This document shows, piece by piece, positions 42,441 through 46,847 of a stretch of 64,000 nucleotides of DNA; the stretch's first letter is position 1, and the number at the start of each line of letters is the position of its first letter. The notes beneath the pieces were generated by a model. The model worked only from the letters and a program-made list of their open reading frames with translations, had not been told where the DNA came from and ran no database searches. The position numbers and the translations under genes were made by a program. Source of the stretch: a virus; IMG/VR virus record IMGVR_UViG_3300037247_000810, positions 1 through 64,000 of that record; one strand, written 5' to 3'.

Positions 42441-42467
42441 CACCGCGCCCCAATTAGAGGCGCGGTG
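42441..42467. terminator. hairpin between convergent transcripts
   Basis: CACCGCGCC-N9-GGCGCGGTG. Confidence 0.6.
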
Positions 42468-42474
42468 CTGATAT

Positions 42475-42699
42475 GTGACGGGTGACTTGGGGGCGGCCGG
42501 TGTGGGCAACTCAGACCCGCAAGTCTTCGATTCCTCTCAGACCTTGGCACTTGCTTCCGGTCTGGATTATTTCAACGCCGCCCGTCCGACGTTAGCCCAC
42601 GGGATCACACACCTGACCCGTGGGGAAACGCAGTGGCCCGCGCGGGTGCTACCACTGTCCACGTCTTCGGGCAAGCCCTACTGGTGAACTTACGCAGGC
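42475..42699 (-). ncRNA. unknown structured RNA, about 220 nt
   Basis: Nested helices; last element of the RNA operon. Confidence 0.5.
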
Positions 42700-42745
42700 C
42701 GGTGCCGGTGGAGGGAGTCGAACCCTCTTCTTACCCTTGACCGGC
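42700..42745 (-). ncRNA. mini-tRNA 1 (acceptor + T arm only)
   Basis: GCCGGU/ACCGGC stem, GAGGG-UUCGACU-CCCUC T arm, ends ACCG. Confidence 0.75.
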
Positions 42746-42820
42746 TGGAGCCATCGGAGGGAATCGAACCCTCTCCTGCGGTTTACGAAACCGCTGCACA
42801 GCCACTTGTGCTTCGATGGC
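42746..42820 (-). tRNA. tRNA-Thr(CGT)
   Basis: Cloverleaf, loop TTCGTAA, CCA. Confidence 0.9.
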
Positions 42821-42906
42821 TGGTAGCCTCGGCGAGAGTCGAACTCGCACGCCGTTTCCGGCCGGGGCTTCTAAGACCCCTACGTCTACCATTCCGTCAC
42901 GAGGCT
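42821..42906 (-). tRNA. tRNA-Leu(TAG)
   Basis: Loop CTTAGAA, long variable arm; A1 overlaps upstream CCA. Confidence 0.9.
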
Positions 42907-42981
42907 GGTACACCTGGTAGGAGTCGAACCTACAATCTCTCGGATGTGAACCGAGCGCCTTAGCCTTTGGGCCACAGGTGC
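42906..42981 (-). tRNA. tRNA-Val(CAC)
   Basis: Loop TTCACAT. Confidence 0.9.
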
Positions 42982-43056
42982 TGGTGCTTCGGGACGGATT
43001 TGAACCGCCGACGCCGCGCTCTTCAGGCGCGCGCTCTACCCCTGAGCTACCGAAGC
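42982..43056 (-). tRNA. tRNA-Phe(GAA)
   Basis: Loop CTGAAGA. Confidence 0.92.
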
Positions 43057-43057
43057 G

Positions 43058-43134
43058 TGGTGGGCAATACAGGACTCGAACCTGTGACCTCTGCGATGTC
43101 AACGCAGCGCTCTAGCCTGCTGAGCTAATCACCC
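43058..43134 (-). tRNA. tRNA-Val(GAC)
   Basis: Loop TTGACAT. Confidence 0.92.
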
Positions 43135-43209
43135 TGGAGCGGAAGAAGGGACTCGAACCCTCGACATTCTCGTTGGCAACGAGACATTCTACCACTGAAT
43201 TACTTCCGC
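43135..43209 (-). tRNA. tRNA-Gly(GCC)
   Basis: Loop TTGCCAA. Confidence 0.92.
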
Positions 43210-43296
43210 TGGTGTCACCGGCGAGAGTCGAACTCGCACCCCCTTGCGGGGACAAGGCTCTCAACCTTGCATGTCTACCTGTTCCATCACGGTGAC
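43210..43296 (-). tRNA. tRNA-Leu(GAG)
   Basis: Loop TTGAGAG, long variable arm. Confidence 0.92.
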
Positions 43297-43372
43297 TGGT
43301 GAACTCGGTAGGAATCGAACCTACGACATCCGACGTATCAGATCGGCGCTCTAACCCCTGAGCTACGAGTCC
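43297..43372 (-). tRNA. tRNA-Ile(GAT)
   Basis: Loop CTGATAC. Confidence 0.92.
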
Positions 43373-43448
43373 TGGTGACAGCGGGTGGACTTGAACCACC
43401 GGCCTTCGCCTTATGAGGGCGCTGCTCTACCAACTGAGCTACGCTGCC
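43373..43448 (-). tRNA. tRNA-Met/Ile2(CAT), elongator type
   Basis: Loop CTCATAA, paired G1:C72. Confidence 0.88.
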
Positions 43449-43526
43449 TGGTAGCCCCAGCAGGATTCGAACCTGCGACGTTCCGCTTAAGAGGCGGCTG
43501 CTCTGGCCGGACTGAGCTATGGGGCC
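43449..43526 (-). tRNA. tRNA-Lys(CTT)
   Basis: Loop CTCTTAA. Confidence 0.92.
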
Positions 43527-43612
43527 TGGTGCGCAAGGAGGGAATCGAACCCTCAAACCCTAGTGGGCACACGGTTCTGAGCCGTGCGTGTTTACCGTTT
43601 CACCACTCGCGC
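43527..43612 (-). tRNA. tRNA-Leu(CAG)
   Basis: Loop CTCAGAA. Confidence 0.92.
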
Positions 43613-43700
43613 TGGTGGGGCAGGTAGGACTCGAACCTACGGAGACCGTTAAGGCCAGCAGGGTTACAGCCTGCCGCAATTGCCGCTATGCGACTACCCC
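43613..43700 (-). tRNA. tRNA-Tyr(GTA)
   Basis: Loop CTGTAAC, long variable arm (bacterial type). Confidence 0.92.
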
Positions 43701-43702
43701 TT

Positions 43703-43776
43703 TGGAGACCCCGGCCGGATTCGAACCGACGATAACCGGGTTGCAGCCGGTTGCCTTACCACTTGGCCACGGGGTC
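43703..43776 (-). tRNA. tRNA-Cys(GCA)
   Basis: Loop CTGCAAC, U73. Confidence 0.92.
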
Positions 43777-43849
43777 TGGCACACCTGGTAGGAGTCGAAC
43801 CTACTCTCACGGGTTTGGAGTCCGGTCGGCGCATCCCGCGCTCAGGTGC
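43777..43849 (-). tRNA. tRNA-Trp(CCA)
   Basis: Loop CTCCAAA; short D loop. Confidence 0.85.
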
Positions 43850-43924
43850 TGGCTGTCGGACTAGGATTCGAACCTAGAACTTCCTGATTCAGAGTCAGGC
43901 GTCATACCGTTAGACCATCCGACA
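43850..43924 (-). tRNA. tRNA-Gln(CTG)
   Basis: Loop CTCTGAA, U1:A72. Confidence 0.92.
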
Positions 43925-43998
43925 TGGATGCGGGAGCAGGAATCGAACCTGCATTCACGGGTTCAAAGTCCGACGTCCGACCTTTAGACGATCCCGCA
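43925..43998 (-). tRNA. tRNA-Gln(TTG)
   Basis: Loop CTTTGAA, U1:A72. Confidence 0.9.
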
Positions 43999-45349: not shown

Positions 45350-45426
45350 TGGTCGGAGTTGCAAGACTCGAACTTGCGGCCCCCGCGTCCCGAACGCGGT
45401 GCTCTTCCTGGCTGAGCTAAACTCCG
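45350..45426 (-). tRNA. tRNA-Pro(CGG)
   Basis: Loop TTCGGGA. Confidence 0.92.
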
Positions 45427-45502
45427 TGGGGTGATCGAGGAGATTTGAACTCCCGCTAAGAGGGCCACAACCTCTTGTGCTAACCACTACACTACGACCA
45501 CC
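45427..45502 (-). tRNA. tRNA-His(GTG)
   Basis: Loop TTGTGGC; encoded G-1:C73. Confidence 0.92.
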
Positions 45503-45503
45503 T

Positions 45504-45577
45504 TGGAGCGCCTAGCGGGAATCGAACCCGCGAACTCTGCTTGGAAGGCAGATATGTTGCCCCTACATCACAGGCGC
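45504..45577 (-). tRNA. tRNA-Gly(TCC)
   Basis: Loop CTTCCAA. Confidence 0.92.
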
Positions 45578-45652
45578 TGGTACGGGCGGTGGGACTCGAA
45601 CCCACACCGAACGGTTTAAAAGACCGCTGCTCTGCCTTCGAGCTACACCCGC
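45578..45652 (-). tRNA. tRNA-Lys(TTT)
   Basis: Loop CTTTTAA. Confidence 0.92.
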
Positions 45653-45728
45653 TGGTAGCGTCGACGGGATTCGAACCCGCTCCGTCCGGTTTGAAAGACC
45701 GGCGACCTATCCTGTAGTCGACGACGCT
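45653..45728 (-). tRNA. tRNA-Glu(TTC)
   Basis: Loop CTTTCAA. Confidence 0.92.
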
Positions 45729-45804
45729 TGGAGCCTTCGGCGAGATTCGAACTCGCTGCCTCGTTCTTACCAAGAACGCGCTCTACCAATTGAGCTACGA
45801 AGGC
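45729..45804 (-). tRNA. tRNA-Thr(GGT)
   Basis: Loop TTGGTAA. Confidence 0.92.
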
Positions 45805-45812
45805 TTGTTATC

Positions 45813-46142
45813 GAGCAATCGGGTCGTAAGCCGCTTTCTGTTTCTCTGCCTACATCTCTCTAGCTGTCACGCGGTCGCTGCCAAACTACCCGCCGCGCCT
45901 CCGGCCCCCTAACGCAATCCGTCTTTTCACACGACCTCCGTGTCTCCGGGTCTCGGCAGGCTCGGTGGCCCGCTACCCGTAGTCGCTGTTCGTGACATCT
46001 CGCCGGTCTCTTGCCCGACGGCCCGCCTTATTAGGGACGGGTAGGTTGTTTGGCGGCCGAGCGGACTTTCCTCAAGGGCCTCGTGGTGCAAACGCCTCGC
46101 GGCTCCCACCAGACGATCCTGCGTAGGCACGTCCGATTGCTC
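45813..46142 (-). ncRNA. rnpB: RNase P RNA (ribozyme), reduced architecture
   Basis: P1 GAGCAAUCGG/CCGAUUGCUC; P2 UGCCUAC/GUAGGCA; CR-I GAGGAAAGUCC; CR-IV AGAGAGAU; CR-V ACAGAAAGCGGCUUA; P4 CCGCU/AGCGG. Confidence 0.9.
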
Positions 46143-46145
46143 TCT

Positions 46146-46196
46146 TGGCAGCCGGTCGCGGAATCGAACCGCACGGAGGTCAACCAGACCCCGGCT
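46146..46196 (-). ncRNA. mini-tRNA 3 (acceptor + T arm, GCCA end)
   Basis: AGCCGG/CCGGCU; UGCGG-UUCGAUU-CCGCG; directly 5' of the RNase P RNA. Confidence 0.78.
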
Positions 46197-46271
46197 TGGT
46201 GCCCTGAGCGGGAATCGAACCCGCATCTGCCGCTTAGGAGGCGGCTGCGCTATCCATTACGCCATCAGGGT
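46197..46271 (-). tRNA. tRNA-Arg(CCT)
   Basis: Loop CTCCTAA. Confidence 0.9.
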
Positions 46272-46346
46272 TCAATAGGCATCCGTGCCGATGGCCTTCC
46301 TGGCCCCAATACCACGGCCCGCCTGAGTTAAGGCACACGGGCCGGA

Positions 46347-46395
46347 CGGTCGACTGCGCGGGGATTTGACCCCATAGCGCCAAGCGCCGCAGCCG
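46347..46395 (-). ncRNA. mini-tRNA 4 (degenerate T arm)
   Basis: CGGCUGC/GCAGUCG + ACCG; GGGG-UCAAAU-CCCC. Confidence 0.55.
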
Positions 46396-46396
46396 T

Positions 46397-46466
46397 TGGC
46401 ACCCTCGGTGGGAGTCGAACCCACGTTTGGCCGCTTAGAAGGCGGCGCATCGTCCCCGACGAGGGC
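46397..46466 (-). tRNA. tRNA-Arg(TCT), truncated D arm
   Basis: Loop CTTCTAA; 70 nt. Confidence 0.8.
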
Positions 46467-46542
46467 TGGTGAGCGATGAGGGAGTCGAACCCCCGGCACC
46501 CTGGATGTAAGCCAGGTGCTCTGGCCTCTGAGCTAATCGCCC
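46467..46542 (-). tRNA. tRNA-Val(TAC)
   Basis: Loop CTTACAT. Confidence 0.92.
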
Positions 46543-46617
46543 TGGTGGAGATGACAGGATTCGAACCTGCGACTTTCAGTCTGCCAGACTGACACTCTCC
46601 CGCTGAGTTACATCCCC
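46543..46617 (-). tRNA. tRNA-Ala(GGC)
   Basis: Loop CTGGCAG; G3:U70. Confidence 0.92.
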
Positions 46618-46693
46618 TGGTGGAGCACGCGGGACTCGAACCCGCAACCTCCTGCGTGCAAGGCAGGCGCACTCCCAATTGTGCTAGCACCCC
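46618..46693 (-). tRNA. tRNA-Ala(TGC)
   Basis: Loop CTTGCAC; G3:U70. Confidence 0.92.
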
Positions 46694-46769
46694 TGGTGGA
46701 GACGACAGGACTCGAACCTGCTACCTCGTCGTTGCGAACGACGCACTCTCCCTGCTGAGCTACGCCCCC
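46694..46769 (-). tRNA. tRNA-Ala(CGC)
   Basis: Loop TTCGCAA; G3:U70. Confidence 0.92.
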
Positions 46770-46818
46770 TAGTCTATTCTAGCAAAGAACGGGCCGCCTC
46801 TATGGGCGGTCGATCCTC

Positions 46819-46847
46819 AATATACCGGATCGCGGAATACTTGTCAA
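46819..46847 (-). promoter_or_regulatory. strong sigma70-type promoter of the tRNA/RNase P operon
   Basis: TTGACA-N17-TATATT, about 50 nt upstream of the first tRNA; AT-rich upstream. Confidence 0.85.

Follow-up and report, generated by a model that had tools for sequence, protein, structure and literature searches.

The window analysed here is the first 64 kb (64,000 nucleotides) of the 103,459-bp IMG/VR record IMGVR_UViG_3300037247_000810, which is ~82% complete. Between positions 42432 and 46847 of the window, on the minus strand, we identified an RNA operon that joins 42 tRNA genes to an RNase P RNA gene and several short tRNA-like and structured RNAs. This ~4.4-kb promoter-to-terminator unit is probably laid out so that cuts by RNase P alone would free almost every member of a complete set of tRNAs. 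The anatomy of the operon, its conservation, the covariation of its structured parts and the rarity of its layout were directly observed. The record, which stems from an uncultured marine-sediment phage, also encodes a large terminase (TerL), a portal, a head-tail adaptor and a tape-measure protein, and is therefore assigned to a tailed, siphovirus-like phage; the public runs that contain this stretch are all marine and sediment metagenomes (DNA contigs).

ARAGORN detected 40 tRNAs between positions 46769 and 42746 (minus strand), each terminated by an encoded CCA (40/40), and all tRNAs of the record fall inside this one block. Two additional elements, a 69-nt Thr(UGU)-like gene and a 73-nt non-canonical Trp(CCA) gene, score just below the Rfam tRNA cut-off but are CCA-terminated and have 0 nt on both sides. 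Both are kept in seven genomes, the former with compensatory changes in 7 of 18 pairs and an invariant UUGUAA loop, the latter with compensatory changes in 16 of 21 pairs. The total is thus 42 tRNAs with an encoded CCA in 42/42 and all 20 amino acids covered, in agreement with an earlier note on this DNA. That note had also counted by hand how many direct tRNA-tRNA junctions have 0 nt between the CCA and the next +1, and we reproduced its figure of 32 out of 37 exactly. The five other junctions hold AG before tRNA-His (2 nt, or 1 nt if the encoded G-1 is assigned to tRNA-His), AA (2 nt), C (1 nt), a 12-nt spacer and a 1-nt overlap. The 12-nt spacer looks like the scar of a mostly deleted tandem copy of the neighbouring Ser(GCU) gene.

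To place these numbers against a viral background, we searched IMG/VR for a T arm-CCA followed by a tRNA start at 0-30 nt. In this arbitrary sample, 5 of 143 CCA junctions (3.5%) were at 0 nt and the mode lay at 4-7 nt. A further 83 viral arrays, each of four or more tRNAs, had 489 direct junctions, of which 9 were at 0 nt or overlapping. The 32/37 of the window departs from the viral background with a Fisher p of ~1e-37.

Cleavage by RNase P is known to yield a 5' phosphate on one product and a 3' hydroxyl on the other. Each cut in the array would finish two ends, because the nucleotide before +1 is A76 of the upstream tRNA, so that one cut per junction would yield the mature 5'-phosphate end of the downstream tRNA together with the mature CCA-3'OH end of the upstream one. 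We propose that a single ~4.4-kb precursor is transcribed and would be cleaved 5' of each +1, first by the host RNase P holoenzyme and later also by the phage RNase P RNA with host RnpA. Where a non-tRNA RNA comes next, a mini-tRNA would supply the cut site beside the CCA; it consists of the acceptor stem and the T arm, by which RNase P identifies its substrates. Processing would probably run in the 3' to 5' direction, since each cut leaves the next substrate with a free CCA. The role of the phage RNase P RNA plus host RnpA would most likely be to raise or safeguard RNase P capacity during infection. That the cuts occur, that the phage ribozyme is active and that a host protein is used is what we infer from this arrangement. 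By count, 35-37 of the 42 tRNAs would be finished by RNase P cuts alone, while the rest would need 1-12 nt removed or one A added. Our searches of the record for CCA-adding enzyme, RNase Z-type and RtcB families found none, and a search for T4 Rnl1 gave no match in the record but no match in any control genome either.

In Escherichia coli, RNase P is the sole endonuclease that separates the polycistronic tRNAs of valU, lysT and valV-valW (Agrawal, Mohanty and Kushner 2014, PMC4176162). On valU and lysT it works in 3' to 5' order, and a long 3' trailer impairs its cutting (PMC4176162). However, the spacers in these operons are 2-150 nt, and the released tRNAs need RNase II, PNPase, RNase PH or RNase T (PMC4176162). 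By comparison, the zero spacers of the phage array would dispense with exonuclease trimming.

When the array and the RNase P RNA were used as queries against GenBank phages, near and distant DNA searches returned no relative. A search with the window TerL alone likewise returned no viral relative, and no TerL relative was found in prokaryote genomes, which therefore offered no host or prophage lead. Viral relatives were instead recovered with a TerL alignment, giving nine independent related contigs (referred to below by handles such as L009) whose TerL is 47-88% identical to that of the window. All nine carry a tRNA array just upstream of TerL, with CCA encoded nearly throughout and spacers that are overwhelmingly 0 nt. 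Over the ten arrays including the window, the 257 direct junctions comprise 229 at 0 nt, 3 overlaps and 25 at 1-30 nt. The order of tRNAs varies among the genomes of this clade, and 52 of the 62 neighbour pairs seen in a single genome are still at 0 nt. Zero spacing has therefore been kept or restored upon array rearrangement, a pattern that points to selection or to a mechanism acting exactly at unit boundaries. Every zero-spacer array that we found belongs to this one TerL clade and thus counts as a single evolutionary origin.

In the tRNA arrays of the distant relatives L024 (942-1422), L026 (3182-3717 and 5034-5564) and L012 (2200-2563) we also observed inserts, 360-540 nt long, that contain a ribosome-binding site and an ATG. 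Most of these ORF-bearing inserts have no preceding mini-tRNA, and they may be homing-endonuclease-type genes.

There are five sites in the operon at which a non-tRNA RNA comes after a tRNA, and at four of them a mini-tRNA of 45-51 nt starts 0-1 nt past the CCA (Table 1). Each of these mini-tRNAs combines an acceptor-like stem with a short hairpin and with a T arm whose loop is of the GGUUCGA type. Three of the four (A, B and the terminal one) have covarying orthologues that keep RCCA or ACC tails. Compensatory changes affect 5 of 15 pairs in mini-tRNA A (orthologues in L009, L015 and L026), 8 of 12 in mini-tRNA B (L009, L015, L025 and L029) and 4 of 10 in the terminal mini-tRNA (L012, L015, L025 and L026), in which ACC is invariant. 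The fifth site is occupied by hairpin element D, which is specific to the window. All mini-tRNAs lie on the 5' edge of the cargo and none on the 3' edge; by our own rough estimate, random placement in the cargo would put all four at the 5' edge with a chance of ~1e-7. This arrangement fits with RNase P making the 3' ends of the tRNAs.

The mini-tRNAs probably arose from tRNAs by internal deletion, which raises the question of whether they are simply functionless, decaying tRNA pseudogenes. They retain the register of a former tRNA, one mini-tRNA of L009 exactly fills a 48-nt gap, and the 12-nt remnant, if read as above, shows that such deletions happen. However, the acceptor and T stems have been maintained through compensatory changes in three orthologous sets, the ACC or RCCA tails are invariant, and the part that survives is exactly what RNase P recognises. 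As their stems covary and their tails are kept, the mini-tRNAs are maintained structures, and we consider it very improbable that they are pseudogenes.

The nearest non-tRNA Rfam model to the mini-tRNAs is mascRNA (RF01684), with scores of 27.9 (mini-tRNA A), 14.6 and 13.7 bits against a cut-off of 42.5 bits. In the MALAT1-mascRNA and MEN-beta systems, a tRNA look-alike located directly 3' recruits RNase P, and the cut makes the mature 3' end of the upstream RNA (PMC8457004, PMC4824109). Like mascRNA, the phage mini-tRNAs are acceptor stem and T arm folds directly 3' of the RNA whose end would be set, but the mascRNA systems are eukaryotic nuclear long non-coding RNAs whereas the RNA released in the phage is a tRNA. 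Because the RF01684 scores fall far below the cut-off, the resemblance is one of analogy, not homology.

Three window-specific inserts of 76-86 nt (76, 85 and 86 nt; Table 1) have no homologue in the relatives by nhmmer and match no Rfam family. Two of the three come straight after a mini-tRNA, and the third opens with its own terminal stem followed by ACC. These inserts could be a variable small-RNA cargo.

The RNase P RNA of the operon is a reduced type-A molecule. It matches RF00010 over the full length of the model (positions 1-367) with 26 bits and an E-value of 2.4e-5 in a 5.5-kb search, although the gathering cut-off of this family is 100 bits. The strands of its P4 helix are GAGGAAAGUCCG and ACAGAAAGCGGCUUAC, a J18/2-like segment reads CUAGAGAGAUG, and both CR-I (GAGGAAAGUCC) and CR-V (ACAGAA..CGGCUUA) are present and form the P4 pseudoknot. 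We found homologues in six relatives, so that the gene is present in all seven arrays (7/7, window plus six) that include that part of the operon, and each homologue lies directly upstream of tRNA-Thr(GGU). The P4 pairs are kept in the seven homologues with one compensated change. We tested a structure comprising P2, P3, P5, P8, P9, the P12-like helix, the P15 hairpin and the P4 and P6 pseudoknots on the alignment of these seven sequences. The structure was 94.6% paired, with compensatory changes in 29 pairs, values reached by 0 of 500 shuffles, and in controls with slid partners pairing dropped to ~38%. Covariation was found in P2 (3 pairs), P3 (5 pairs), P5 (4 pairs), P4, P6, P8, P9 and P15 (6 of 8 pairs); in the window the strands of P1 pair as well. 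The earlier note's placing of an RNase P RNA within the operon is therefore borne out by an intact catalytic core and covarying helices.

The P6 pseudoknot, formed by J5/7 with the P16/P17 loop, sets type A apart from type B. In the phage RNA, J5/7 pairs with the loop of the P15 hairpin to give P6, which is 100% paired and shows compensatory changes in 4 of 5 pairs; the P15 loop serves as the P6 partner because P16/P17 are missing. P18 is absent as well, the segment from P15 to J18/2 being too short for it, and our attempt to assign P13/P14 found no assignment that could be made. The RNA resembles the type-A RNase P RNA of E. coli (M1) in P1-P5, the P4 core, P6, P8, P9 and the J18/2-like segment and has a GGUA where L15 would lie, but differs from the M1 type in its length of ~330 nt, its simple P15 hairpin with a loop that forms P6, and its lack of P16/P17 and P18. 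In type-A enzymes the L15 GGU pairs with the CCA of the substrate. The sequence GC.GGUAG is invariant among the homologues between the P15 5' strand and P6, the position equivalent to L15, and the invariant GGUA would agree with all substrates bearing CCA. Further, the RNA has kept ~200 nt of S-domain region, and the blocks AACAG.GA and UGUGAAAA are invariant among the homologues, which suggests that the portion of the specificity domain that reads the T loop has been preserved.

Searching the 103-kb record, itself 82% complete, for the protein subunit gene rnpA (PF00825) gave no hit at E<=1. The description of this RNA in the earlier note as the operon's "own processing enzyme" was therefore overstated, since the RNA subunit alone was found, and the phage RNase P RNA would have to use the protein of its host; we take host RnpA as its likely partner. 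One could instead argue that the RNA does not work as the enzyme of the operon: it might act as a decoy, titrating host RnpA or tRNA-binding factors, or be a regulatory RNA or a relic in decay. The absence of P16/P17 and P18, the low RF00010 score and the lack of an rnpA hit would agree with such a role, as would the tethered mini-tRNA B, whose RCCA end lies 5 nt upstream of P1 and could fill the substrate site. On the other hand, the P4 sequences and the J18/2-like segment are intact, the GGUAG at the L15 position is invariant, and 29 compensated pairs across seven homologues at 47-88% TerL identity are not what a relic would look like. We therefore regard a non-enzymatic role as improbable.

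RNase P RNAs are not confined to zero-spacer arrays. We also found them in viral arrays with ordinary spacers of 3-7 nt (L104, L004, L007 and L002), so carriage of the ribozyme does not require zero spacing, and the proposal in the earlier note that zero spacers explain why an RNase P RNA is carried does not hold as a general link. The unrelated contig L104 (IMGVR_UViG_3300027313_000002) encodes at 9376-9703 an RNase P RNA that scores 263.7 bits and lies 3 nt from a tRNA. The surrounding array holds 35 tRNAs, and none of its 22 junctions is at 0 nt. Scores above the cut-off were also obtained for the RNase P RNAs of L002, L003, L005, L006 and L008, the last of which also carries a tmRNA.

As read from the sequence, the array forms a single operon in which one promoter and one terminator enclose all genes on one strand. 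The promoter TTGACA-N17-TATATT and the terminal hairpin of the earlier note are both present and conserved in relatives: the promoter aligns as TTGACA-N17-TAnAnT in L009, L015 and L025, and the terminal hairpin is conserved in L012 and L025 and called as a terminator in L025. Between the promoter and the first tRNA, a leader hairpin that aligns in L009 and L025, and is called terminator-like in the window and in L025, may be an attenuator controlling expression of the array or a 5' stabiliser. In L026, the RNase P RNA seemed by eye to have a possible promoter of its own, but the promoter scan made no call there and we dropped it.

If internal promoters and terminators instead split the region into several transcripts, cutting at the junctions would matter less. 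The window has a weak promoter-like site (9/12) in tRNA-Pro and a terminator-like hairpin in tRNA-Leu(UAA), the leader hairpin resembles a terminator, and the ORF-bearing inserts of L012, L024 and L026 include one, in L012, with a promoter-like sequence. However, internal promoter- and terminator-like sites occur in the window at the same frequency as in shuffled sequence, zero spacers leave no intergenic room for promoters, and conservation is limited to the outer promoter and terminator. The internal signals that the earlier note had named as evidence against its reading thus amount to what shuffling produces, and we see hardly any likelihood in a division into several transcripts.

Several observations weigh against maturation of the array by RNase P alone. 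RnpA normally contacts leader positions -4 to -8, and zero spacing leaves only NCCA single-stranded upstream of the cut site, which may slow cleavage. Five junctions of the window (1, 2, 2 and 12 nt and the 1-nt overlap) would need trimming or addition of an A, and two mini-elements start with an unpaired A, so that up to seven tRNAs would require 3' trimming or a terminal A. Outside the window, the distant relatives L024 and L026 have many 1-nt spacers, and their ORF-bearing inserts have no mini-tRNA in front. The preservation of zero spacing could reflect a mechanism that rearranges exactly at unit boundaries instead of selection. To these points are added the 26-bit RF00010 score, the lack of an rnpA hit and the RNase P RNAs of ordinary-spacer arrays given above. 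The earlier claim of self-processing by RNase P alone therefore stands in part: it follows from the established cut chemistry and is strengthened by the zeros across the clade and the mini-tRNAs at CCA ends, but is weakened by the five to seven tRNAs that would still need an extra 3' step.

Several of the observations would also fit if zero spacing were a by-product of compaction or of array growth by exact units, inherited within the clade, with the usual host RNase P, RNase E and 3' exonucleases maturing the tRNAs and the RNase P RNA serving as a general accessory of tRNA-rich phages that has nothing to do with the spacing. Ordinary-spacer viral arrays with RNase P RNAs, the single origin of all zero-spacer arrays in one TerL clade and the drift of distant members to 1-nt spacers can all be understood in this way, and the 12-nt Ser(GCU) remnant attests to tandem duplication and deletion. 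However, ~1.1 kb of non-tRNA cargo is tolerated, so the exact zeros are not due to compaction alone, and phages with the same packaging limits retain 4-7 nt. Further, the genome-specific neighbour pairs are mostly still at zero, and covarying mini-tRNAs stand exactly where a downstream RNase P site would be missing. We therefore consider a by-product unlikely, if with a real chance of being correct, and favour an operon laid out for RNase P cutting.

A broader interpretation, which we put forward tentatively and as somewhat short of an even chance, is that this phage lineage possesses a self-contained, RNase P-only tRNA line. Such a line would combine CCA-to-+1 fusion, mini-tRNA cut signals and a simplified ribozyme tuned to CCA-bearing, back-to-back substrates, and could provide a full tRNA set without host 3' nucleases or CCA-adding enzyme, for instance when the host tRNA pool or its processing is shut down or attacked.

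Among known systems, the tRNA cluster of phage T4 is similar in that its tRNAs are tightly packed in an operon and are accompanied by the small stable RNAs rnaC and rnaD. Dimeric T4 tRNA precursors are split by host RNase P, as described in the T4 literature of the 1970s-80s, and several T4 tRNAs are without an encoded CCA. Unlike the window, the T4 cluster has annotated spacers of 1-10 nt, 8 tRNAs as opposed to 42, no RNase P RNA gene and no mini-tRNA punctuation. Mitochondrial tRNA punctuation is also comparable, as the abutting genes of a polycistron are resolved at tRNA boundaries. In mitochondria the CCA is not encoded, RNase Z and a CCA-adding enzyme are required, and the tRNAs punctuate mRNAs and rRNAs. 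A literature search that did not cover all journals found no description of a phage- or virus-encoded RNase P RNA, nor of an operon-wide CCA-to-+1 (zero-spacer CCA) tRNA array. The operon thus combines known parts (a phage tRNA operon, a type-A RNase P RNA and a tRNA-like processing signal) in a combination for which we found no description.

If our interpretation is correct, gene layout alone would eliminate one step of tRNA maturation, 3' trimming, and the operon would provide a bacterial-virus counterpart of the mascRNA and tRNA-punctuation principle, with tRNA mimics acting as pure RNase P cut signals. The operon offers a tractable set of substrates for studying how RNase P handles back-to-back tRNAs and whether phage RNase P RNAs are active. 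The layout could also serve as a design for multiplex RNA expression, in which tRNA or guide-RNA arrays would be built without spacers and punctuated by mini-tRNAs.

Table 1. Elements of the RNA operon in order of transcription (window positions; minus strand throughout)
Position (strand)	Element	Context	Basis
46819..46847 (-)	Sigma-70-type promoter, TTGACA-N17-TATATT	11/12 positions match	
46794..46809 (-)	Leader hairpin and U-rich tract	Between promoter and first tRNA	Terminator-like call
46397..46769 (-)	Five tRNAs: Ala(CGC), Ala(UGC), Ala(GGC), Val(UAC), Arg(UCU)	Encoded CCA, 0-nt junctions	ARAGORN
46348..46396 (-)	Mini-tRNA A, ACC end	Directly after CCA of Arg(UCU); first base A unpaired	Fold
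46272..46347 (-)	76-nt cargo RNA, two hairpins		Fold
46197..46271 (-)	tRNA-Arg(CCU)		ARAGORN
46146..46196 (-)	Mini-tRNA B, GCCA end	0 nt after CCA of Arg(CCU), 5 nt before P1 of RNase P RNA	Fold
45811..46140 (-)	Reduced type-A RNase P RNA	P1-P5, P6 pseudoknot, P8, P9, P12-like helix, P15 hairpin	
45123..45804 (-)	Nine tRNAs: Thr(GGU), Glu(UUC), Lys(UUU), Gly(UCC), His, Pro(CGG), Pro(UGG), Glu(CUC), Met(CAU)	0-nt junctions save AG before His, whose G-1 is encoded	
45038..45122 (-)	85-nt hairpin element D: 6-bp terminal stem, then ACC, no T loop	1 nt after Met CCA	Fold
44961..45037 (-)	tRNA-Asp(GUC)		ARAGORN
44914..44960 (-)	Mini-tRNA E: 7-bp acceptor stem, small hairpin, T arm	0 nt after Asp CCA	Fold z -2.47
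44828..44913 (-)	86-nt long-hairpin cargo RNA		Fold z -2.35
44411..44827 (-)	Five tRNAs: Ser(GGA), Ser(CGA), Ser(UGA), Arg(GCG), Arg(UCG)	0-nt junctions	
44399..44410 (-)	12-nt spacer	First 9 nt of next gene Ser(GCU) plus CCA	Direct sequence reading
44309..44398 (-)	tRNA-Ser(GCU)		ARAGORN
44240..44308 (-)	69-nt tRNA-Thr(UGU)-like gene without D arm	CCA end, 0 nt both sides	Rfam tRNA 23.9 bits
43850..44239 (-)	Five tRNAs: Asn, Leu(UAA), Leu(CAA), Gln(UUG), Gln(CUG)	0-nt junctions	
43777..43849 (-)	73-nt non-canonical tRNA-Trp(CCA)	CCA end, 0 nt both sides	Rfam tRNA 28.4 bits
42746..43776 (-)	Thirteen tRNAs, Cys to Thr(CGU)	0-nt junctions save AA, C and one 1-nt overlap	
42701..42745 (-)	Terminal mini-tRNA: acceptor stem and T arm, ACC then G	0 nt after last CCA	Fold z -2.23
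42469..42700 (-)	~230-nt structured RNA closing the operon	Conserved hairpins; homologues in L012, L025, L020	
42432..42468 (-)	Intrinsic-terminator-like GC hairpin (42468-42441) and U-rich tail	Conserved in L012, L025	

The ~230-nt tail RNA that closes the operon contains the blocks GGCUAACGUCG, GGGCGGCG and AGCAAGUGC, which are conserved in its three homologues, and matches no Rfam family even with lax filters. We considered whether it could be a tmRNA or a permuted tmRNA and rejected this, as ARAGORN called none and the adjacent mini-tRNA has both of its own acceptor strands. A "tmRNA*" call made by ARAGORN in L009 covers ordinary tRNAs and was treated as false.

The clade also contains odd tRNA relatives that are of interest in their own right, namely the Thr tRNA without a D arm and stand-alone elements resembling the tRNA-like domain of tmRNA. 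The Thr(UGU)-like genes, of 69-71 nt in the window and in L009, L012, L015, L024, L025 and L026, have a connector of ~9 nt in place of the D arm and an extended anticodon arm, and are missed by ARAGORN. To our knowledge, tRNAs that lack the D arm are otherwise a peculiarity of mitochondria. The stand-alone elements, absent from the window, are ~80 nt long and 0-nt spaced within the arrays of L015 (6762-6841), L026 (5865-5944), L029 (3140-3220) and L025 (3467-3550). They start with GGGGACGA..UCGAC, finish with ..CGUCUCCACCA and have a G3-U70 pair, and so look like a tmRNA tRNA-like domain minus the message part.

Finally, some individual tRNAs of the array have unusual features. One of the two CAU tRNAs (45123-45198, minus strand) has an A1xC72 mismatch atop its acceptor stem, which could mark an initiator-like or Ile2-like role; relatives have a separate Ile(UAU) tRNA while the window is without one. 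The tRNA at 44487-44564 (minus strand) reads CGU/CGC with the anticodon GCG, not the usual bacterial ACG (inosine), and is kept clade-wide.

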